Source: Actinomycetota bacterium
GTDB lineage: Bacteria; Actinomycetota; Coriobacteriia; Anaerosomatales; UBA912
Length of the DNA stretch: 64,000 bases
Direction of reading: 5' to 3'
Assembly: GCA_018334075.1 (NCBI GenBank)
Contig: JAGXSC010000007.1
Location: 364 to 64,363, forward strand
Shown here in pieces: positions 3,781 through 14,098 of this stretch. Each line of letters starts with the position of its first letter. Within the stretch, counting starts at the first letter, position 1. Made by a program: the position numbers and the translations under genes. The notes beneath the pieces were generated by a model. That model was given only the letters and a program-made list of their open reading frames with translations. It did not search any database and had not been told where the DNA came from.

Positions 3781-3801
3781 AAAACCACTTCGAATCAAGC
3801 G

Positions 3802-3831
3802 CCGCTCTTACACAGAGCGGTTTTCTTTTCT
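3802..3831 (+). terminator. Intrinsic terminator/attenuator, the expression platform of the TPP riboswitch
   Basis: Hairpin CCGCTCT-tacac-AGAGCGG followed by TTTTCTTTTCT, between the riboswitch and the thiF start. Confidence 0.65.
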
Positions 3832-3867
3832 CGGCAGCCTCGCGATCCAGACCAAGCGAGGCAGGCC

Positions 3868-4674
3868 GTGCAAATTCATGTCAACGAAAAGTGTGTCCGC
3901 GTCAAGCAAGGCGCACGCCTGAACTTTGTGCGAAGCCAGTTCAAGCCGGACGCCGATATCGTCATCGTAAACGGCTTTCCCGCCACAAACGATCAGGAAC
4001 TCGCCGAGAATGATCGCGTCACGCTTATACGCCGAGGCGAAATCCCCTCTGAAGAGGAGTTCGAGGCGCTGCTGGTGGCTCGACACTCTCCGGGTGTTCA
4101 CGAGCGGGTGCGCTCCGCTTGTATCGGCATCGCCGGAGTCGGTGGCTTGGGGTCGTTTATCGCTCTTGCTCTTGCCCGTACCGGAATCGGCCGCCTGATC
4201 CTCGTCGATCACGATGTGGTCGAGCCTTCCAACCTAAACAGGCAGCAGTACTTCGTGGACCAGATCGGTCAGCCGAAAGTCGATGCGCTTTCCGACACCA
4301 TCTCTCGCGTGAACCCGCATGTCGCAGTATCAGCACATCGAGCGCGAGTTGCGCCCTCGAATGTCGCAAGGCTGTTTGAAGGCGTCACCGTCATGGTCGA
4401 GGCGTTCGATGACGCCCGCGAGAAAGCGATGCTGGCCGAGTCTTTCAGGCTGGCGTATCCGGATGTGCCGCTGGTAGCCGCCTCGGGCCTGGCTGGCTTC
4501 GGTCCCAGCAACGAGATCACCACTACCCGCCGAGGAAAGAGCCTGTTCCTCGTAGGCGACGAACTCTCGGCGGCCGAGCCGGGACAGGGCCTGATGGCGC
4601 CCAGGGTCGGTGTGGCCGCGCACCATCAAGCCAATGCCGTCTTGCGCCTGTTGTTGGATGAAAGCCCAGTGTGA
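3868..4674 (+). CDS. thiF: ThiF-family adenylyltransferase with an N-terminal ThiS-like beta-grasp extension
   Basis: E1-like nucleotide loop IGIAGVGGLGS, then VDHDVVEPSNLNRQ. The first ~65 aa (IHVNEK...ADIVIVNGF...NDRVTLIRRGE) resemble ThiS but lack a terminal GG. First gene after the TPP riboswitch. Confidence 0.8.
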   Translation: MQIHVNEKCVRVKQGARLNFVRSQFKPDADIVIVNGFPATNDQELAENDRVTLIRRGEIPSEEEFEALLVARHSPGVHERVRSACIGIAGVGGLGSFIALALARTGIGRLILVDHDVVEPSNLNRQQYFVDQIGQPKVDALSDTISRVNPHVAVSAHRARVAPSNVARLFEGVTVMVEAFDDAREKAMLAESFRLAYPDVPLVAASGLAGFGPSNEITTTRRGKSLFLVGDELSAAEPGQGLMAPRVGVAAHHQANAVLRLLLDESPV

Positions 4675-4688
4675 AGAAGGAGCACGCC

Positions 4689-4889
4689 ATGAATCTCACG
4701 GTAAACGGAGTATGTCAGGAGTTTTCGGAGCCATTGACGGCAGCGGGGATGCTGGAAGCGCTTGGCGTCGATGCCGCCCGCGCGGTTATCGAACGCAACG
4801 GGGCGGTGTTGTCGCGCGAGAGCCTCGCCGTCACCGCGCTTGCCGATGGTGACGTGATCGAGATAGTCCACTTCGTATCGGGAGGGTGA
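4689..4889 (+). CDS. thiS: Sulfur-carrier protein ThiS
   Basis: 66 aa ending ...VHFVSGG. AAGGAG lies 6 nt before the ATG at 4689 (track ORF starts at 4671). Confidence 0.85.
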
Positions 4890-4894
4890 AAAAC

Positions 4895-5686
4895 ATGCCC
4901 GTGAAAACACAAGACCCCCTGGTCATCGCAGGGCGAACTTTCAGTTCCCGGCTGTTGATGGGAACCGGCAAGTTCAGCTCGCCAGAGACGATGCGCGCGG
5001 CGCTCGAGTCCTCGGGGGCCGAAATCGTCACGGTGGCGCTAAGGCGAGTCGACCTCTCCGATCCCGCTGACAACATGCTCGCCCATATCGACCCCGCGCG
5101 CTATCTGCTGCTACCGAACACAAGCGGCGCCAAAGACGCCCAGGAGGCTGTGCGCCTGGCGAGGCTGGCGCGTGCGGCTGGCTGTGAGCCGTGGGTAAAA
5201 GTCGAGGTTACCCCCGACCCGCACTACCTGTTGCCAGATCCGATTGAGACCCTTCGCGCCACCGAAATCCTGGCCGCCGAGGGCTTCGTCGTCCTGCCAT
5301 ACATGGGCGCGGACCCCGTGTTGGCCAAGCGGCTCGAAGAGGCCGGCGCGGCCGCGGTCATGCCGTTGGGGGCCCCGATCGGCACAAACAAGGGACTGCG
5401 TACACGCGATGCCGTCGGCATCATCGTCGAGCAGGCCACACTGCCCGTAATCGTCGACGCGGGTCTGGGCGCCCCTTCCCATGCGGCTGAAGCGCTCGAA
5501 ATGGGTGTGGACGCCGTGCTCGTGAACACAGCGATCGCGGTAGCCGGCGATCCACCCGCGATGGCCCGGGCGTTTGCCACCGCGGTTGTCGCCGGGCGCG
5601 AGGCGTTCCTCGCCGGTCTTGCCACCGAAGGCCGCTTCGCCGAAGCCTCCAGTCCACTCGAAGGCTTACTAGGGAGTCTGAAATGA
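4895..5686 (+). CDS. thiG: Thiazole synthase ThiG
   Basis: Strong ThiG-like sequence ([33 protein letters not shown]). GGAGGG precedes the ATG at 4895 (the track start at 4886 is a GTG overlapping the thiS stop). Confidence 0.9.
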
Positions 5687-6810
5687 GCTTCGCCGAGGAA
5701 ATGAGCCGCTTCGATGGCTCGCGCGTGTCCGAGCTGATTCACTCGATGAGCTCAGCCGATGTTCGGCGTGCTCTCGGCACGCAGCGCAAAACTTTCCGGG
5801 ACCTGGCGGCACTGCTCTCGCCTGCCGCCGAAGAAATGCTCGACGAGATCGCCGCACAAGCCCAAGCCGACACTTTGCGGCACTTCGGCAGAGCGGTACA
5901 GCTCTACTCGCCCTTGTATCTCTCGAACGAATGCGACAACGACTGCGCCTACTGCGGATTCAGCGCCGCCAATAGCGCCCTCCGCTCGACGTTGAGCGAT
6001 GAGGAGATCGTGACCGAGGCCCGGGCGCTTCGGGCGAAGGGGTTCCACCACATTTTGCTGCTTACAGGCGAGGCGCCGCGGGCAATCGACAAGGACAGGC
6101 TCGCCGAGGTGGTCCGGCTGTTGCGCCCACTGTTCGCCTCGATCTCCATTGAGGTTTTCCCCATGGACGAAAACGGCTACAAGACTATGGTTGCCAGCGG
6201 TGTCGACGGGCTCGTAATCTACCAGGAAACCTACGACAAAAATACCTACCTGGAGTTGCACCGAAGCGGGCGCAAGCGAGATTACGCATTCCGACTGGAC
6301 GCGCCTGAAGCCGGAGCCGCCGCCGGAATGCGACGTGTGGGCATCGGATGCTTGCTTGGACTATCCGATTTCAGGCGCGATATGTTTTTTACCGCGCTTC
6401 ACGCCGCCTATCTGACGCGAAATTTCTGGCGCACGCAAGTAACGATCTCGTTTCCTCGGCTTCGCCAGGCAAGAAGCGACTACTCCCCAAAATACCCGGT
6501 CTCCGATCGCCAACTGGCGCTTTCGATCTGCGCGATGAGGCTTTTCCTGCCGAGAGCAGGCCTTCTGCTTTCAACACGCGAAAATCCTCGACTCCGCGAC
6601 GCCCTGCTGCCTATCGGAATCACCCAGATGAGTGCGGGCTCGTGCACTCAGCCGGGGGGCTACGCCAGCGCCAAAGACAACGCAAGCCAGTCCCAGTTCG
6701 AGGTAAACGACGACCGAAGCGCCGAGGAAGTCTTCGCCGCGATCAGGTCTTTGGGGTACGACCCCGCCTGGAAAGACTGGGACGCCGAGCTTAGCGGAGG
6801 TGCGCGATGA
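5683..6810 (+). CDS. thiH: 2-iminoacetate synthase ThiH (radical SAM tyrosine lyase)
   Basis: [10 protein letters not shown] radical-SAM triad. ATGA overlap with thiG. Operon context. Confidence 0.9.
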
Positions 6811-7445
6811 GCACAGGTGCTCCGATAAGCGGTCTTTACGTCGTGACCTCCGAGTATCCGCACCTGAAGCGCTCCCACGTCGGCGTTGCCAGAGCCGCGC
6901 TTGAAGCGGGCGCCAAGGTCATTCAATACCGCGACAAGACGCGCAAAGGCTCTGATCTGCTCGCTGTCGCCAGTGAGCTTAGGGCTCTGTGCCGCGCGGC
7001 CGGAGTCGCGTTCGTCATGAACGATCACGCCGAGGTCGCGATGAAGGTGCGCGCCGACGGCCTGCACCTCGGCCAGGGCGACCTGGCCGAGCTTTCCGGA
7101 TGGCGACCGCGGTGGAGCGCGTTTCTCGGCATTTCGGCGTGGAGTGTGGAGCTTGCCGAGAAGGCCCGCTCGCTCGGCGCGGACTATGTGGGCTCGGGGC
7201 CTGTCCGGCCGACGGTGTCCAAACCGATGACCCGCGAGCCCCTCGGGCTAGATGGCCTACGCGCGATCTGCGAAACCGGCGTGCCGGTAGCGGCCATCGG
7301 GGGCCTTGGGGCCGATGACGTCAGGAGCGTGTTTGCCGCGGGTGCATCCGCGATCTGCGTGATGGGAGGCATCGGTGCGGCCGATGATCCTTTGGGTGTG
7401 GCGCGCGAAATCGTATCGCGCGTCGAAGAGACAGGAGCATACTGA
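6807..7445 (+). CDS. thiE: Thiamine-phosphate synthase ThiE
   Basis: TMP-TENI-like sequence (IQYRDK, NDHAEVA, DGLHLGQ, YVGSGPV...T). ATGA overlap with thiH. Confidence 0.9.
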   Translation: MSTGAPISGLYVVTSEYPHLKRSHVGVARAALEAGAKVIQYRDKTRKGSDLLAVASELRALCRAAGVAFVMNDHAEVAMKVRADGLHLGQGDLAELSGWRPRWSAFLGISAWSVELAEKARSLGADYVGSGPVRPTVSKPMTREPLGLDGLRAICETGVPVAAIGGLGADDVRSVFAAGASAICVMGGIGAADDPLGVAREIVSRVEETGAY

Positions 7446-8728
7446 TGGCTTTCTTCGATGATCTGCAAAACGGCCGCCTCGATGAGACGCTGGCGACCCT
7501 GGCAAGGAATGAGAGTGTCGATGTCAACGAGCTTGTCGAGGGTATTCGCCGAGGACACATCGCTGTGCTCGCAAGCCGCGCCAGACGCAACCACATCCGG
7601 CCCTCGGCGGTAGGCGAAGGGCTAAGGGTGAAGGTCAACGCCAATATCGGCACCTCGGAGGCGGCCTCCAGTATCGAGCAGGAACTCGCGAAGCTGGACG
7701 CCGCGCTTTCGGCTGGCACCGATGCGGTCATGGACCTTTCGACGGGAGGGGATCTTCGCGAGGTGCGCTTCCGAATACTCGAGCGCTGCGATGTGCCGCT
7801 TGGCACCGTTCCCGTCTACGAGGCCGCGGTAAATTCGATGCGCCGCGACGCTGGAGTGACCGGAATGTCGGCAAACGAGATGCTGGCCGCGGTCAGAACT
7901 CACGCCGAGGACGGCGTGGACTTCATGACCGTGCACGCTGGCCTGACGCGCGAACAAGCGGCGGCGGCTTCCAGCAGGGCCGCCGGCATCGTCTCCCGCG
8001 GAGGTGCGTTTCTCGCATGCTGGATGGAGGCCAACGACGCCGAGAACCCCTACTACGAGCGCTTCGACGAGGTGCTCGATATCTGCAGGCGCCACGACGT
8101 TGTTCTGAGCCTTGGTGACTCGCTGCGCCCAGGGTGCATCGCCGACGCCGGCGACGAGGCACAACTCGGTGAGCTTCGGATACTCGGCGACCTGGTGCTT
8201 CGGGCCCGCGCCGCCGGCGTGCAGGTGATAGTCGAAGGCCCGGGACACGTGCCCATCTCGGAGATCGTCGAACAGATGCGAATCGCCAAAGAGCTATGCC
8301 ACAGAGCGCCGCTTTACGTGCTCGGCCCGATCGTTACCGACGTAGCGCCAGGTTACGACCACGTGACCTCCGCTATCGGCGGAGCGCTGGCTGCATCGGC
8401 GGGCGCCGACTTCCTGTGTTATGTGACGCGCGCCGAGCACGTGTGTCTGCCCGATGCCGACGACGTGCATGAGGGCGTCGTCTGCGCCCGAATAGCCGCT
8501 CACGCTGGGGACATCGCCCGAAACCTGCCCGCGGCACGCGAATGGGACGCGCAGATGACCTCGGCGCGCAAGAATCTCGACTGGAAGCGGCAGTTCGCGA
8601 TCGCGATCGACAGACAGCGCCCGGAAACCATGCGACAGATGCGGGGCGGCGGCTCCGACAAGCAGTGCTCCATGTGCGGCTCCTTGTGTGCAATGCGGCT
8701 GGTAAACGAGCTGGAAGCCAGCGCATGA
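7445..8728 (+). CDS. thiC: Phosphomethylpyrimidine synthase ThiC
   Basis: Highly conserved ThiC blocks (VNANIGTS, MDLSTGG, VPVYEA, EGPGHVP, C-terminal CSMCG..C). TGATG junction with thiE. Confidence 0.95.
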   Translation: MAFFDDLQNGRLDETLATLARNESVDVNELVEGIRRGHIAVLASRARRNHIRPSAVGEGLRVKVNANIGTSEAASSIEQELAKLDAALSAGTDAVMDLSTGGDLREVRFRILERCDVPLGTVPVYEAAVNSMRRDAGVTGMSANEMLAAVRTHAEDGVDFMTVHAGLTREQAAAASSRAAGIVSRGGAFLACWMEANDAENPYYERFDEVLDICRRHDVVLSLGDSLRPGCIADAGDEAQLGELRILGDLVLRARAAGVQVIVEGPGHVPISEIVEQMRIAKELCHRAPLYVLGPIVTDVAPGYDHVTSAIGGALAASAGADFLCYVTRAEHVCLPDADDVHEGVVCARIAAHAGDIARNLPAAREWDAQMTSARKNLDWKRQFAIAIDRQRPETMRQMRGGGSDKQCSMCGSLCAMRLVNELEASA

Positions 8729-9513
8729 GGCGGGCGTTGCTCATCGGCGGAGTCGACCCATCGGCGGGAGCGGGGCTTCTCGTGGACGCTTTCGTGGCGT
8801 CGCGCCTGGGCTTTTCGCCGATGTGCGCCGCGACCGTCATCACCGCGCAAAACTCGCACCGCTTCTACGCTTCCGAGCCTGTAGCGTCAAAGATGCTGCA
8901 CGATCAGCTTCAGGCGATAAGCGAGGACGGCCCGATAGCATGCACCAAAATAGGCGCTATGGGGTCTTATGAAAACGCCGAGACCACCCGGCGCTTCCTG
9001 CAAGAACACGAAACCGGGCCCGTGGTGCTCGACCCGGTTCTGGCTAGCTCATCGGGAGGTTCGCTTTTGAGCTGCACGTTAGAGAAGTTGCGGCCGCTCA
9101 TGGGCGCTTGCGACCTGATCACCCCCAACGCCTTCGAGGCCGCAACCTTGTCCTCGCGCGAAATTATCACATTGCGTGATGCCGAGAACGCCGCCTTGGA
9201 ACTCTCGGCACGATACGGCACGAGCGTCCTTGTTACCGGCGTGAGCCAGGGCGACTGCGCCTCGGACGTCCTTGCCACCCAGGGCCGTGTCGAAGTCCTG
9301 TTGCACCCCCTGATAAAAGAGGCCGGTGATCCCAGGGGAACGGGGTGCGCGTTTTCGACAGCCATCGCGATAAACCTCTGCCTGTCAGGCGATCTCACCG
9401 TCGCCATTCGCTCGGCTCAAAGCCTCTTGCTTGAGCTTGTCTCCCAAGCCGCCGCTTTAGGACGAGGCCGCCGGCAATTCGATTTCACCGCCGGTCAGTC
9501 CGAGCCTAGCTGA
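8725..9513 (+). CDS. thiD: Hydroxymethylpyrimidine/phosphomethylpyrimidine kinase ThiD
   Basis: The N-terminus MRRALLIGGVDPSAGAGL is the ThiD signature. ATGA overlap with the thiC stop. The longer track ORF (8542) would overlap thiC. Confidence 0.85.
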   Translation: MRRALLIGGVDPSAGAGLLVDAFVASRLGFSPMCAATVITAQNSHRFYASEPVASKMLHDQLQAISEDGPIACTKIGAMGSYENAETTRRFLQEHETGPVVLDPVLASSSGGSLLSCTLEKLRPLMGACDLITPNAFEAATLSSREIITLRDAENAALELSARYGTSVLVTGVSQGDCASDVLATQGRVEVLLHPLIKEAGDPRGTGCAFSTAIAINLCLSGDLTVAIRSAQSLLLELVSQAAALGRGRRQFDFTAGQSEPS

Positions 9514-11802
9514 GGTCATCAGCATGCTGAGGCTGCTCGCTTTGATCATCACCACCACCAGCGAGGTTCCCACCAGTCCCAGAACAGGCAACAGCAGCAC
9601 TGCAGCGATGATTCCTCCGACCCACCCGCCCATAAGATCAGCACTATAAAGCAGACCGGCTGTCCGACTTAAATCAGGAGAGCGGGCTAAATATATTTTA
9701 TTTGCTAGTGGGAATTTAAGGCCGACGAGGGCGCCGGCGATAAGTGAGAGCAGAAGAAAGAGTAGTTGCGCAAGAACAAACACAGTGACGTTCCCTAAGT
9801 GGGGGGCAGTTACAAGAATGACCAGCGGCAGCAAAAGGGCAAAGATGCCCACCGCCATCTCCAATTTAATAAATAGGGCGCGGTCGTCTTTAATGCGCGG
9901 CAAGAGTGCGGTCATTGCAAAGGCGCCCCCACCAACACCAAACATAAACGCTGCCACGAGCAGCCCCAACCAGTGGAGAGCAAATCCAAAAAGTGCCTGA
10001 AAGGCGAAGATGAGGAGCAGGTCAAAAACCATGCCTGCAAAGCCGGTCGTAGCAATGGAGTAAGGAACGCTCATTCGGCGCAGGCGGGCAGTTCCCTGCT
10101 TGAGTGCCAAAAGAATAGCGGTGCCGGCGACAATGGCCAGCGCAAAGAATGACAGTCTAAGCCCCTCCAGCCAGACGAAGAAATCGCGCAGATAGGGAGA
10201 GAACATCGCGTTCCAATAGGCAAGGCTATAAAAAAAGCCCTTGGGCCGAAAATCATGATTTACCTCCTCGGTTGCCCCTTCCATGGATTCCAAAAACCAG
10301 TCCATCCAGCGCGGATCCAACCGCAGCTCGAGATGAGCTTGACTGATAAGCTGCAAATCCAGCTGACGCTCTTGTAGCCTGTCATGGAGCTGGCTGGAGT
10401 CGAATGCTGTGACCTCCTTTGTCATAGAAGCCAGAATGATGTTGTTATCTCCGGGGATGATGCGCAGATACGGAAAGGCGCTTTCCAGCGTATTGATGAT
10501 AACGCCGTTCAAGTTCCGGAGCTCGTGGCATAAGTAAGTGAGTGAACCAGGCAGGCTAACAACCAGTATCCCGCCCTCCTTGAGCCTTTCTCGCGCCAAC
10601 AAAGCAAACTCGAGAGTAAAAAGGCGGTTCACCTGCAAGTTAGTCGGATCGGAAACCCCTACAAAGATCAAATCGTACTGACGTGGCGTCAATTTAAGAA
10701 AACGCCGGCCATCAACATGTAGCGTATGCACAAGTGCAGAACCAAGCTCTGCTTCGGTCAGAGGCGTGGGGAATTCTCGCACCAGATCGATCAACAAAGG
10801 ATTGATCTCTGCATAGTCAACCCGCTTTACTGTGGGATGCTCAAGGACTTCGCTGATCACTCCGCCAGCCCCTCCGCCGAGTATAGCCACACTCTCTGGC
10901 CGCGGATGAGCCAGCATCGGAAAGTGAACGAACTCCTCCACGCGCACAATATCAGGTGTCGGAGCGGTCAAAGCCGGGATGCCGTCGGTCAGGAAGGTGT
11001 ACTCTCCCTCGCGCTCAATCACCGCTACATTGCCGTAGGGTGAGTGTTGGTAGTGAACCACCTCCTGGCCCGGCCATTGCCGAGCAAGCGCATTGTGATG
11101 AAGCCGCTCATCGCCATCGGAAGCGAGTAGATAGACAAATACCACCAACACAGCCGTGAGCAGTGCGATGGCTTTTTGCTTCCCTCCATTGTCTTGCAAA
11201 GTAGCCAGGGCCACCGAGGCTATGAGAACCAAAACGCACATGGCAAAGACGATGGCAAAGGAGTGGAAAAAATTGATGAGGAAAAAAACAAATGCGACTG
11301 CTCCGACGATATGGCCGATCGTCTCCAAAACATATACCCGGCCGATTGAAGACGCGCCTTTGTGAGGCTCGCCCTCCTGCTCCTTAAACTGAGCGCAAAG
11401 CTTACATGTAAAAACAAACAGCGCGCCATGCAGAAGACTGGGCAAAAAGAGAACGAGGAAAGAGGAGTAGAAGATAGGAAGCACTCCCATCCCTACCCAG
11501 GGCATCACGCCGACGATATCCCGCACTATCCGCGCCAGATAGAGGGCAAGCGGTGCAGAGAGAACGAACAGGAGCGAGACCGCGAGAAACCAGCGTATCC
11601 TTTTTTTTGCTCGCTCGATCCGCTTCCCGATGAAAAACGCACCAAAGGCTTCGACAATAAGCCAGTTGGCCAAGACAATCCCTATGGCCAGCTCATTGCC
11701 GTGAAAGACCACCAGCAGCTCCCGCAGTAGGAGCAGCTGTATCACCATGCCACTGAAACCGGTTATCAGTGCGGCAAAAAGTAGCCGCTTGCTCATTCCC
11801 AA
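9457..11802 (-). CDS. Fused polytopic membrane / spermidine-synthase-like protein (fused MFS/spermidine synthase type)
   Basis: 781 aa: about 7 TM, then a central SpeE-like fold (SPYGNVAVIE..., ILGGGAGGV, EINPLLI, FVGVSDP), then about 7 C-terminal TM. The canonical GGGDGG is GGGAGG here. Confidence 0.7.
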   Translation of the reverse strand: MGMSKRLLFAALITGFSGMVIQLLLLRELLVVFHGNELAIGIVLANWLIVEAFGAFFIGKRIERAKKRIRWFLAVSLLFVLSAPLALYLARIVRDIVGVMPWVGMGVLPIFYSSFLVLFLPSLLHGALFVFTCKLCAQFKEQEGEPHKGASSIGRVYVLETIGHIVGAVAFVFFLINFFHSFAIVFAMCVLVLIASVALATLQDNGGKQKAIALLTAVLVVFVYLLASDGDERLHHNALARQWPGQEVVHYQHSPYGNVAVIEREGEYTFLTDGIPALTAPTPDIVRVEEFVHFPMLAHPRPESVAILGGGAGGVISEVLEHPTVKRVDYAEINPLLIDLVREFPTPLTEAELGSALVHTLHVDGRRFLKLTPRQYDLIFVGVSDPTNLQVNRLFTLEFALLARERLKEGGILVVSLPGSLTYLCHELRNLNGVIINTLESAFPYLRIIPGDNNIILASMTKEVTAFDSSQLHDRLQERQLDLQLISQAHLELRLDPRWMDWFLESMEGATEEVNHDFRPKGFFYSLAYWNAMFSPYLRDFFVWLEGLRLSFFALAIVAGTAILLALKQGTARLRRMSVPYSIATTGFAGMVFDLLLIFAFQALFGFALHWLGLLVAAFMFGVGGGAFAMTALLPRIKDDRALFIKLEMAVGIFALLLPLVILVTAPHLGNVTVFVLAQLLFLLLSLIAGALVGLKFPLANKIYLARSPDLSRTAGLLYSADLMGGWVGGIIAAVLLLPVLGLVGTSLVVVMIKASSLSMLMTSARLGLTGGEIELPAASS

Positions 11803-12947
11803 ATCCCCGGCACGGGGCGGCCAGAAAATGGCGATTTGCCATCAACGATTTTGTTATACACCACCGAAAAATGAGTGCGGTGAACAAGCCGCTCGCCGGT
11901 GTCCGGGCAAAACGTGGAGTTGTATTTGTGGCCGGGGACATTGCCGATGGTGACGAAGTTTATTCCCTGCCCTCTGGCTATGGTATGCGCTTTTTCCAAC
12001 GTCTCTATCGGTGTTGGCGGAAGGTGCGTCAGTTGGAAGCTGGGGAAAAATCGGCTGAAATGAAGCGGTACGTCCGGGCCTAGGTATTCCACAATCCACT
12101 TGCTCATTTCCATGATTTCGTCCATAGAATCGTTTATCGTGGGGATGACGAGATTGACGATCTCCAGCCATACTCCTTTTTCCTTGATAATCCTAAGCGT
12201 TCTCAGGACAGCGGGAAGATCGCCGCTGAAAGTCTCACGATAGATATCCTCACAGAACCCCTTGAGATCAATAGTTACCGCAGTGGTATATGGAAGCAGT
12301 TTGCGCAGCGGCGCTTCCCCAATCGCGCCATTTGAGTGCCAGATGAGACCCACTCCCGCCTCTTTCGCCAAAACTGCGGTGTCGTAAACATACTCAAAGA
12401 GGACGATGGGATCATTATAGGTAAACGAAATAGCGGTGACGCCTCGTTCCTGGGCTTGCTTCACCAGCTGCGCGGGGGGCAAATCATGGACGCGCCGGTC
12501 GGTAGGGCTGGCCTGCGACAGACTCCAGTTATGACATTGCATGCAGCGGAAGTTGCATCCCACCGTCCCGACGCAAAGGATGTCTGTTCCCGGGCGATGG
12601 TGGAGCTGAGGCTCTTTCTCGATGGGATCAATCATCACCGCCGAGGGACGCGAATGAACCAGGCTGTATAAGCTGCCCGCAATATTTTCCCGTACCCGGC
12701 AGGCCCCACGAGTCCCCGCAGAAATAATACAGCGGCGGAAGCAAAGCTCGCAGTGGACCCCGCCGCCCTCAATCGCCTGCCAGAACATCGCCTCGCGCAA
12801 GCCAGCAGCGAGCTCTTCCCCCACAGGCTTAGCCGCTTCCGTCTGTAATCGTTCCAGCCAGGCCGATCCCCGCACTCCGGCCACAGTAGCAACAACCAGA
12901 CCTCCAATAACAGCGCCAACTTGCAAAAAGCGCCGCCTATCCATCAT
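11793..12947 (-). CDS. Radical SAM protein of the AmmeMemoRadiSam (AmrS)/PflA-like type, with a twin-arginine signal-like N-terminus
   Basis: MMDRRRFLQVGAVIGGLVVATVAG is a Tat-motif consensus (RRxFL). AmrS-like blocks follow: CELCFRRC...GACRVR, DPIEKEP, GCNFRCMQCHNW (CX3CX2C). It overlaps the downstream gene by 10 nt. Confidence 0.75.
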   Translation of the reverse strand: MMDRRRFLQVGAVIGGLVVATVAGVRGSAWLERLQTEAAKPVGEELAAGLREAMFWQAIEGGGVHCELCFRRCIISAGTRGACRVRENIAGSLYSLVHSRPSAVMIDPIEKEPQLHHRPGTDILCVGTVGCNFRCMQCHNWSLSQASPTDRRVHDLPPAQLVKQAQERGVTAISFTYNDPIVLFEYVYDTAVLAKEAGVGLIWHSNGAIGEAPLRKLLPYTTAVTIDLKGFCEDIYRETFSGDLPAVLRTLRIIKEKGVWLEIVNLVIPTINDSMDEIMEMSKWIVEYLGPDVPLHFSRFFPSFQLTHLPPTPIETLEKAHTIARGQGINFVTIGNVPGHKYNSTFCPDTGERLVHRTHFSVVYNKIVDGKSPFSGRPVPGIWE

Positions 12948-13135
12948 GACTACATCCCTCCTTCTCTTGTCCAGATGTCAGGGGTCGCCCTGATCTCGCG
13001 AGCATCGATGGAGGTGTTCTTTCGCTTATTTCTCGATAGAATTCCTCGTTGTCATAAGATTTACCCTTTCGACATCCATATACTTAATAAACATACACGT
13101 CGACTCCGGACCGATAAAGCCATCGGTGACGTCTT

Positions 13136-14098
13136 TCAGCTCTCTGACTCGGAAAGCTGAGTTGTTATGTAGCGCTCTCCGGAGTCCGGCAATATGACAC
13201 AGATCAGCTTCCCCGAATTTTCCGGCCTGTTTGCCACTTTCAGGGCCGCCCACACAGCGGCTCCCGAAGAGATCCCGCAGAGGACTCCCTCCGAAAGCGC
13301 CACCTGCCTGGCCGTCTCAAAAGCGTCGTCGTTGGTGACCTGTATGACCTCGTCGATTATTTTGCGGTTGAGTATCGATGGGACGAAGCCCGAACCGATG
13401 CCCTGTATACGGTGAGGTCCGGGCTTCCCGCCGGAGAGAACAGGGGATGCCTCGGGCTCTACGGCTATCGATCGGAACGACGGCTTGCGACTCTTTATGA
13501 CCTCGGAAACGCCCGTGATGGTTCCGCCGGTCCCAACTCCCGCAACCAGAATGTCGACTTGCCCGGAGGTGTCCGCCCATATTTCTTCGGCGGTGGTCCT
13601 TCGATGCACTTCGACGTTGGCGGGGTTGTCGAATTGCATCGGCATATAGCAGCCGCGGATGTGGCGCATGATCTCCTTGGCTTTGTTGACAGCGCCGATC
13701 ATGCCCTCGGGTCCGGGTGTGAGTACCAGCTCCGCCCCGAGCATCTGCATCAACTTGCGCCGCTCGATCGACATCGTTTCAGGCATGGTGAGGATAAGCG
13801 GATATCCCTTGACCCTGCATACCCAGGCCAATCCGACTCCGGTATTGCCCGATGTGGGCTCGACGACTGTGGTGCCCGGCTTCAATCTCCCGTCCCGCTC
13901 GGCCGCCTCTATCATCGCAAGCGCTATACGGCACTTGACGCTATTGAGCGGGTTGAACGATTCAAGTTTGGCGACAACCTCTGCGTGAGCCCCCTTAGTC
14001 AACCGCCGCACCCTGACCAAAGGGGTCTGACCGACGGCACCGGTGACGTCTTCATAGATCGTGTTGCGAAAAGTGCCTGTTATTTGCTCATGGGTCAT
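13136..14098 (-). CDS. cysK: Cysteine synthase family PLP enzyme (CysK-like)
   Basis: [15 protein letters not shown] (PLP lysine; the usual KDR is KCR here), [15 protein letters not shown], and a C-terminal SGERY motif. Confidence 0.85.

Follow-up and report, generated by a model that had tools for sequence, protein, structure and literature searches.

A candidate Tat-exported radical SAM enzyme and its membrane partner of spermidine-synthase fold: a two-gene module in an Anaerosomatales bacterium

The window analysed here is a stretch of 64,000 nucleotides (nt) of contig JAGXSC010000007.1 from an Actinomycetota bacterium (assembly GCA_018334075.1; Coriobacteriia, Anaerosomatales, UBA912), and its subject is a pair of minus-strand genes between positions 9457 and 12947. 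The upstream gene encodes a radical S-adenosylmethionine (SAM) enzyme of the AmmeMemoRadiSam (AmrS) type, the downstream gene a polytopic membrane protein with an inserted domain of the spermidine-synthase (SpeE) fold, referred to below as the partner. The reading that we favour, at a probability of roughly 0.55, is that the pair constitutes a module of horizontal origin, in which the radical SAM enzyme is exported by the twin-arginine translocation (Tat) system and acts on the outer side of the cytoplasmic membrane. A preliminary description, made from the sequence of the window, had already pointed to a membrane modification module of this kind; the designation 'modification module' itself is something that we infer.

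The radical SAM protein carries all of the AmrS- and PflA-like blocks named in the preliminary description (CELCFRRC, DPIEKEP and CNFRCMQCHNW), and the family profile TIGR04337 matches it well above its threshold (311.8 bits versus a cut-off of 220), residues 54-383 being aligned to model positions 2-333 of 349. Seven cysteines are invariant among 61 homologues: C66, C69, C73 and C83 in the N-terminal motif of the family, and C131, C135 and C138 in the radical SAM cluster motif. The AlphaFold2 model computed from these homologues (predicted local distance difference test, pLDDT, 91.4) consists of a helix at residues 4-33 and a compact core that starts at approximately residue 50. Both by fold (TM-score 0.80) and by sequence (E 1.5e-12), the closest solved structure is the activating enzyme of pyruvate formate-lyase (PFL), 3CB8. 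At the other end of the protein, the family has a C-terminal CxxC...CxxC motif (residues 347-384, positions 11793-11910), of whose four cysteines three are lost in the subclade of the window enzyme (17 sequences out of 61): CPDTGE...GKSPFSG is found where the others have CPxCG...GxCxFCG, with the surrounding sequence retained.

The alignment to the TIGR04337 model opens only at residue 54 and leaves a 53-residue extension ahead of it. This extension begins MMDRRRFLQVGAVIGG... and has the layout of a twin-arginine signal: the motif DRRRFLQ is followed by a Gly/Ala-rich, mildly hydrophobic h-region (VGAVIGGLVVATVAGV) and a basic c-region, and a transmembrane segment is found at residues 7-25 with three Lys/Arg residues on its N-terminal flank. 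An over-extended start codon was considered and is ruled out by the Shine-Dalgarno sequence and the conserved N-termini of the homologues. The GGAGG stands 9 nt upstream of the ATG at 12947, and the next in-frame methionine of the open reading frame, M54, has merely GAGG 2 nt upstream; because the strong Shine-Dalgarno sequence precedes the long start, the long form of the enzyme, signal included, is the one to be expected. A hydrophobic N-terminal extension of 30-60 aa is likewise present in nearly all of the best 120 database homologues. The disordered linker that joins the signal helix to the catalytic core differs in length and sequence from homologue to homologue.

Within the signal-bearing clade, the N-termini are of two kinds, canonical Tat signals and strongly hydrophobic anchors without twin arginines. 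The Tat-type sequences, 52 in number and from many phyla, share the logo [ST]-R-R-x-F-[LI]-[KR]-K, with F at +3 in 50 of the 52 and L or I at +4 in 48; their mean h-region hydropathy is 1.78 versus 2.70 in the anchor type (p = 2e-11), and the flank after the helix is positive in the former, neutral or acidic in the latter. The N-terminal flank is the more positive one in 39/52 Tat-type and 30/34 anchor forms, so that an N-in/C-out orientation of the enzyme is predicted for both signal classes. The two kinds follow the translocase: TatC (PF00902) is detected in 40 of the 43 genomes with a Tat-type motif versus 2 of the 15 with anchors only (Fisher p = 1.6e-8), and the genome under study encodes it as well (G000, C13:8324-8950, 170.4 bits). 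Because the genomes are related, phylogenetically independent contrasts were also counted on the enzyme tree (n=6), of which five run in the expected direction and none in the opposite one. In an anchor-type set of 11 genomes, nine of them without TatC, ApbE is detectable in 8/11, so genome incompleteness alone is an unlikely explanation for the absent TatC. The Tat-less lineages are by no means remote: the core of their enzyme is 75-84% identical to that of the window enzyme and retains all seven cluster cysteines behind a plain hydrophobic anchor. By its match to the consensus and by the way in which the motif tracks TatC, the N-terminus of the window enzyme behaves as a genuine Tat signal, in agreement with the textbook twin-arginine motif first described there.

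The partner gene follows so closely that the two reading frames overlap. Its homologues begin with MNKR or MKKR where the partner gene has its ATG (11796), and the real junction is therefore most likely the 4-nt ATGA overlap, an arrangement typical of translational coupling; the 10-nt overlap and the 781 aa given in the preliminary description hold for the TTG start at 11802 only. NF037959, the profile of fused major facilitator superfamily (MFS)/spermidine synthase proteins, matches residues 40-450 with 70.1 bits (cut-off 40), and PF01564 matches residues 289-427 with 79.3 bits. The AlphaFold2 model (54 homologues; pLDDT 91.5, predicted template-modelling score 0.90) contains 13 transmembrane (TM) helices in a 7+6 arrangement, one less than the approximately 14 counted earlier, around a domain that does have the SpeE-like fold recognised at that time. 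This fold is complete, with 1UIR, 3ANX and 6BQ2 as Foldseek matches at TM-scores of 0.73-0.76. The Foldseek matches were all SpeE domains, and for the membrane part the label 'MFS-like' derives from the NCBIfam name and from an internal repeat: TM9 (TTGFAGM..D..FQ) repeats the motif of TM1 (TGFSGM..Q..RE), which indicates that the two membrane halves are parallel repeats. A 57-nt tail-to-tail overlap with thiD (9457-9513) covers only the last residues of the partner; residues 766-779 are modelled with pLDDT <50 and are absent or unconserved in homologues, which places the overlap in a dispensable C-terminal tail.

For the topology, the most hydrophobic 19-residue core of each model helix was used, and the Lys/Arg residues of the intervening loops were counted. 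The side of the N-terminus holds 25 of them versus 5 on the other side, and it is on this Lys/Arg-poor side that the SpeE-fold domain lies; two homologues of 39-48% identity show the same pattern. By the positive-inside rule, the SpeE-fold domain is thus predicted to face outward. TM7 and TM8 have the appearance of extra helices, by which the inserted domain comes to lie outside.

A hallmark of the partner family is the loss of the residues on which spermidine synthases rely. The altered glycine-rich motif of the window protein, GGGAGG for GGGDGG, which had been read from the sequence, is upheld by structure-guided alignment: position 310 is Ala in 48, Val in 3, Met in 2 and Pro in 1 of the 54 homologues and Asp in none. 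Position 380, aligned with D158 of 1UIR, is Gly in 49, Asn in 3 and Ser in 2, again with 0/54 Asp, and position 383 shows no conservation. Invariant in the same alignment are the glycine loop (G309, G311, G312), the ribose-binding glutamate E330 and the adenine-binding aspartate D362, and the domain probably still binds an adenosyl ligand. Scores against the spermidine-synthase equivalogs are below the cut-offs throughout (TIGR00417, 89 versus 249.55; PRK00811, 99.7 versus 260; PRK03612, 172.2 versus 472). Since both aspartates needed for aminopropyl transfer are gone, the partner is, as far as its residues tell, not a spermidine synthase, and its domain should be incapable of acting as an aminopropyltransferase; a true spermidine synthase was rejected on the grounds of this loss in 54/54 homologues. 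The annotation of membrane 'spermidine synthase' proteins of this family, which are without that enzyme's catalytic residues, is corrected accordingly.

The partner family is widespread: 465 relatives were found in one-genome-per-species contigs of Dehalococcoidia, Bipolaricaulota, Firmicutes, Desulfobacterota, Nitrospirota, Bacteroidota, Ignavibacteria and others, with WOR-3, Cloacimonadota, Omnitrophota, Latescibacterota and Planctomycetia as further partner-bearing groups. Eighty loci were examined, and the 65 with at least 1.3 kb of upstream sequence were taken as informative. In 37/65, the gene immediately upstream, in the same orientation, encodes a signal-bearing radical SAM enzyme; in 45/65 such a gene is present anywhere in the locus, and no other gene family comes near the radical SAM family in frequency among the examined loci. 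The adjacency of the two genes, first seen in a single genome, is hence conserved across many phyla, and it is retained even in loci whose radical SAM enzyme is merely 54-58% identical. In the 13 genomes without an adjacent copy, the radical SAM family is encoded elsewhere in 12, in 11 of them as a signal or anchor form. In a tree of 108 catalytic cores from which the N-termini had been removed, all partner-adjacent enzymes fall into one clade of 81 rows (Shimodaira-Hasegawa-like approximate likelihood-ratio test, SH-aLRT, 100), which leaves out the signal-less canonical enzymes, including the copy on contig C72 of the same genome.

Between one and five radical SAM genes are found upstream of the partner, and many loci have two to five tandem paralogues. 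These sort into distinct subclades that are common to several phyla, which suggests that several substrate specificities may be served by one membrane partner. Arrays of three to five signal-bearing paralogues upstream of one partner are present in L009, L010, L012 and L016 (Dehalococcoidia/Chloroflexota) and in L035, L041, L046 and L060 (Bacteroidales). L007 (Acetothermia) has four radical SAM paralogues and a nitroreductase gene, with no partner gene in the locus.

Clusters from Dehalococcoidia, Bipolaricaulota and Chloroflexota add further genes to the core, namely those of a nitroreductase/SagB-type lipoprotein, a DsbD_2 transmembrane thiol-electron carrier and an FMN_bind protein, and NapH-like membrane Fe-S proteins are encoded in other module loci. 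The SagB-type, DsbD_2, FMN_bind and NapH-like proteins are usual components of electron transfer outside the cytoplasm and could supply the reductant that an exported enzyme would need. Loci of Syntrophorhabdaceae and Chloroflexota (L088:1771-2649, L073:13044-13820) encode, close to the module, a Tat-signal protein (MKRRDFLKVAVGSC...) and NapH-like membrane Fe-S proteins with the motif CGWICP. The cluster nitroreductase has a lipoprotein signal of the Sec type and a DGVTGAT motif that resembles an ApbE flavinylation site. Its relative in the genome under study (C9:11230-11994; 42% identical, SagB family, TIGR03605 96 bits) has a Tat motif with a lipobox (DRRTFLLALGVLALGATGC) and is without the flavinylation-like motif. 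From these sequences, the nitroreductase appears to be exported by Tat with its cofactor where Tat exists and elsewhere by Sec, the cofactor being loaded after export; this switch between Tat and Sec parallels that of the radical SAM enzymes. Searches of the same genome with tblastn yielded no homologues of the DsbD_2 and FMN_bind proteins of the accessory clusters, the nitroreductase on C9 being the only match, and the module of this genome comprises the two-gene core only.

In the window, the pair is preceded by an operon for an ATP-binding cassette (ABC) importer and a CysK-like protein and followed by a convergent thi operon. The partner is absent from all 40 relatives searched, four of the same family and 36 of the same order; 37 of the 40 have the enzyme, exclusively in its canonical signal-less form, which is 35-41% identical and matched from residue ~47-58 on. 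One genome of the same family (G036; L126, contig C32) has the ABC-cysK operon in synteny, at 77% nucleotide identity over 4.6 kb; the similarity ends at window position 13148, the cysK stop codon, and a convergent lipoprotein gene is found there in place of the pair. For both proteins, the closest homologues are found in assemblies of Dehalococcoidia, Chloroflexota, Desulfotomaculum and Bipolaricaulota. With this phyletic pattern, horizontal acquisition of the module, followed by compositional adaptation, is most probable.

Composition adds nothing to this case. The pair is less rich in G+C than its neighbours, as had been noticed by eye (54.1% versus 63.2% for the thi operon and 58.7% for cysK; genome 56.1%), but its G+C content (17.5th percentile of genome windows) and its tetranucleotide distance (80th percentile) are ordinary for the genome, and foreign origin as judged by G+C was rejected. 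Thus, of the earlier suggestion of horizontal acquisition, the conclusion gains from the absence in 40 relatives, while the argument from composition falls away. The low G+C content of the partner gene stems mainly from codon position 2 (0.383), which is expected for a membrane protein. It is the thi operon (3800-9450) that forms the compositional outlier of the neighbourhood, at approximately the 95th-99th percentile of 3.5-kb windows. A scan of 9200-13400 for promoters and terminators gave nothing above shuffled expectation.

Elsewhere, the genome encodes a canonical, signal-less AmrS of 340 aa (C72:24391-25413) and, unlinked to it, a signal-less fusion of an extradiol-dioxygenase-like part and AMMECR1 (C44:57511-58872; TIGR04335 119.3 bits versus a cut-off of 99). 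The AMMECR1 and Memo genes that the preliminary description had proposed to look for are accordingly represented by the AMMECR1 fusion, next to a second radical SAM gene; Pfam Memo (PF01875) was not detected in this genome, the N-terminal half of the fusion included. An exported Memo/AMMECR1 partner was also considered and dropped, the sole AMMECR1 protein of the genome being without a signal. The features of the module are collected in Table 1.

Table 1. Positions of the two genes and of their features in the window (minus strand throughout)
Feature	Position	Strand	Basis
Radical SAM enzyme, 384 aa, AmmeMemoRadiSam (AmrS) type	11793..12947	-	TIGR04337 and PF04055 matches
Shine-Dalgarno sequence GGAGG, 9 nt ahead of the ATG (12947) of the radical SAM gene	12957..12961	-	read from sequence
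Twin-arginine signal or anchor, residues 1-29: n-region MMDRRRFLQ, h-region VGAVIGGLVVATVAGV, RGSA	12861..12947	-	sequence; TM 7-25; model helix 4-33
Flexible linker, residues 28-46, from signal helix to catalytic domain	12810..12866	-	pLDDT <50, rest of the model confident
Four-Cys motif near the N-terminus, C66-x2-C69-x3-C73...C83, in this family an auxiliary metal or cluster site	12699..12752	-	invariant in 61 homologues
Radical SAM cluster motif C131-x3-C135-x2-C138 (CNFRCMQC)	12534..12557	-	invariant in 61 homologues; aligns with the PflA cluster motif
ATGA overlap of partner start codon and radical SAM stop codon, translational coupling (most likely)	11793..11796	-	sequence; homologues start at the equivalent Met
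Partner, 779 aa from ATG (781 aa from TTG at 11802), 13-TM, MFS-like, with inserted spermidine-synthase-fold domain	9457..11796	-	NF037959, PF01564, AlphaFold2
Seven N-terminal TM helices, residues 3-225, N-terminus inside (predicted)	11122..11790	-	model; K/R-rich loops after TM2, TM4 and TM6
SpeE-fold domain, residues 228-545, between TM7 and TM8, predicted outer face	10162..11115	-	Foldseek; K/R tally
GGGAGG, residues 307-312, where aminopropyltransferases have GGGDGG	10861..10878	-	aligned with GGGDGG of 2B2C and GGGEGA of 1UIR
VGVSDP, residues 379-384, where spermidine synthases have the catalytic D-S/T-x-D-P box	10645..10662	-	aligned with IDLTDP of 1UIR and TDSSDP of 2B2C
Six C-terminal TM helices, residues 548-766	9499..10155	-	model

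Radical SAM chemistry needs SAM, a low-potential reductant and Fe-S assembly, and Tat carries folded complexes. With sequence and comparison as its basis, the module could function in the following manner: The AmrS-type enzyme would be folded and loaded with its Fe-S clusters in the cytoplasm and then be moved across the membrane by Tat, to remain tethered by the uncleaved signal helix and the ~20-aa linker, similar to a Rieske protein, or to be freed by cleavage at GSA. In the partner, which would be of the MFS-like 6+6 type, the additional TM7 and TM8 are predicted to set the SpeE-fold domain on the same outer side. This domain would more probably bind or hand over SAM, a SAM product (5'-deoxyadenosine or methylthioadenosine) or the substrate, and the membrane part of the partner may conduct that small cationic molecule. 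Radical chemistry would then take place on a substrate of the envelope, perhaps a protein or peptide, which is suggested because the nearest fold relative, the PFL-activating enzyme, acts on a protein loop.

Taken to its full extent, this proposal would describe a radical SAM system with extracytoplasmic turnover, the first of its kind, with the enzyme exported in its folded form by Tat, or inserted by Sec and matured outside in Tat-less lineages. The partner would export SAM, or remove 5'-deoxyadenosine or methionine, by means of an outward SAM pocket derived from SpeE, electrons would be provided by exported flavoproteins or by DsbD/NapH-type carriers, and an envelope protein, peptide or lipid would be modified; the window would then hold a horizontally acquired two-gene core of the system. 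In this complete form the proposal is tentative, and we would sooner bet against it than for it.

Several points weigh against a Tat-exported enzyme at the outer face. Turnover after export would need SAM and a low-potential reductant outside, neither of which is, to our knowledge, available there, and no exported or periplasmic radical SAM enzyme was found in the searchable full-text literature. The anchors of the Tat-less lineages predict export of an unfolded chain by a Sec-type route; if so exported, these forms would need insertion of their Fe-S clusters outside the cell, and we know of no Fe-S assembly outside the cytoplasm. Either extracytoplasmic maturation exists or the catalytic domain is inside in all lineages, and these forms can be taken to favour a mere tether. 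Furthermore, the association of TatC with the motif is borderline in the sign test on the independent contrasts (median p 0.06), the topology of the partner is a prediction from hydropathy, the positive-inside rule and AlphaFold2 helices, and no electron-transfer accessory gene adjoins the pair in the window.

The rival that survives best is a tether at the cytoplasmic face, in which the N-terminus only anchors the enzyme and the catalytic domain stays inside, to act on or with the polytopic partner or on a membrane lipid. Such an arrangement fits the needs of radical SAM chemistry, for which SAM, reductant and Fe-S assembly are all cytoplasmic, as well as the flexible linker after the helix, and the strongly hydrophobic non-RR anchors of close relatives in genomes without TatC indicate that the family can do without the Tat motif. 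A generic anchor, however, would not preserve both the full Tat consensus and an h-region of weak hydrophobicity across 52 sequences of many phyla, nor would it track TatC in the observed manner. The charge bias predicts N-in/C-out in both signal classes, the soluble domain of the partner is predicted outside, and the accessory neighbours are exported proteins. We regard the tether as unlikely, if a serious contender. Real export is favoured mainly because a plain tether would neither need the full Tat consensus nor follow the translocase; between the anchor and the exported Fe-S protein that were initially left side by side, the evidence thus leans to export, with a signal that may stay uncleaved as an anchor.

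Export without turnover outside is a further reading, and one to which we attach a distinctly lower probability. Here, the SAM-dependent step would take place in the cytoplasm, for example on a protein co-exported through Tat, or the enzyme would be an Fe-S electron-transfer or structural subunit of a complex with the partner. The signal evidence is the same as for an exported enzyme active at the outer face, no SAM would be needed outside the cell, and hitch-hiking through Tat is established for other cofactor proteins. It is less easily reconciled with the invariance of CxxxCxxC and the core motifs and with the nucleoside-binding pocket of the partner, whose conservation on the side predicted to be the outer one suggests that a ligand of the SAM type is dealt with outside; moreover, the tandem sets of two to five paralogues resemble enzymes with different substrates, not structural subunits. 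Finally, an ordinary membrane-bound spermidine synthase next to an unrelated radical SAM gene with an over-extended start, for which the PF01564 match, the weak PRK03612 and TIGR00417 matches and the SpeE fold could be cited, is very improbable in view of the loss of both catalytic aspartate positions in all homologues, equivalog scores far below the cut-offs, the ATGA overlap and conserved adjacency, and the conserved N-terminal extension with a strong Shine-Dalgarno sequence at the long start.

The radical SAM enzymes, one of the largest of all enzyme superfamilies, are regarded as strictly confined to the cytoplasm on account of their need for SAM, a strong reductant and Fe-S assembly. If the enzyme of the window is indeed exported, radical chemistry would also occur in the cell envelope, and SAM, or a cofactor like it, would have to have a way across the membrane. 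The AmmeMemoRadiSam family, of unknown function and with Memo and AMMECR1 relatives that are linked to human disease, would gain a new context that is experimentally tractable, and the window, as a minimal two-gene version of the module, is suited to heterologous tests.

Among known systems, the window enzyme shares with the AmrS enzymes of TIGR04337 the four-Cys motif, CxxxCxxC and the core blocks, with a score above the cut-off. It differs from them by the added Tat signal and linker, by its position in a separate clade (~36-41% identity to canonical copies), by the loss of three C-terminal cysteines in its subclade, and by linkage to an MFS/SpeE-like gene instead of AMMECR1 and Memo: the AmmeMemoRadiSam context, an AMMECR1-type protein A and a Memo-type protein B, is absent from the locus, where the neighbours are the MFS/SpeE-like gene and cysK. 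Contexts of Memo, AMMECR1 and radical SAM genes were reportedly extended by Burroughs et al. in 2019 (J Biol Chem 294:10211), with a reported tie of the Memo contexts to the modification of nucleotide bases and isoprenoids. A pairing of radical SAM and spermidine-synthase genes was not found in the searchable full-text literature, and the signal-bearing AmmeMemoRadiSam variant and its partner are apparently undescribed.

The partner has a polytopic N-terminal part and a SpeE-fold domain in common with the proteins of NF037959 and PRK03612 and scores above the NF037959 cut-off, whereas its SpeE fold is flanked by membrane halves of seven and six TM helices, has a predicted outward orientation, and shows GGGAGG and a glycine for the catalytic aspartate. 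Compared to the spermidine synthases of Thermus thermophilus (1UIR/3ANX), Thermotoga maritima (1INL/1JQ3) and man (2O05), its fold is similar at TM-scores of 0.66-0.76, and the glycine-rich loop, E330 and D362 are kept; unlike these enzymes, it is embedded in the membrane, coupled to a radical SAM enzyme, and without both the aspartate that selects decarboxylated SAM and the catalytic one. PflA (3CB8, 8FO0), which acts on a protein loop, is nearest to the window enzyme by sequence and fold and shares its compact partial barrel, but it is cytoplasmic and has neither the extra N-terminal Cys-rich domain nor the C-terminal extension. As a glycyl-radical activase the enzyme scores far too low (TIGR02493, 45.5 versus 231.75; TIGR02494, 20.3 versus 174.35), and no glycyl-radical enzyme is encoded in the locus. 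The closest likeness in terms of export is offered by the Rieske proteins, in which an N-terminal twin-arginine signal on an Fe-S protein, possibly uncleaved as an N-in anchor, is combined with a cofactor domain outside; those are, however, electron carriers without a need for SAM.

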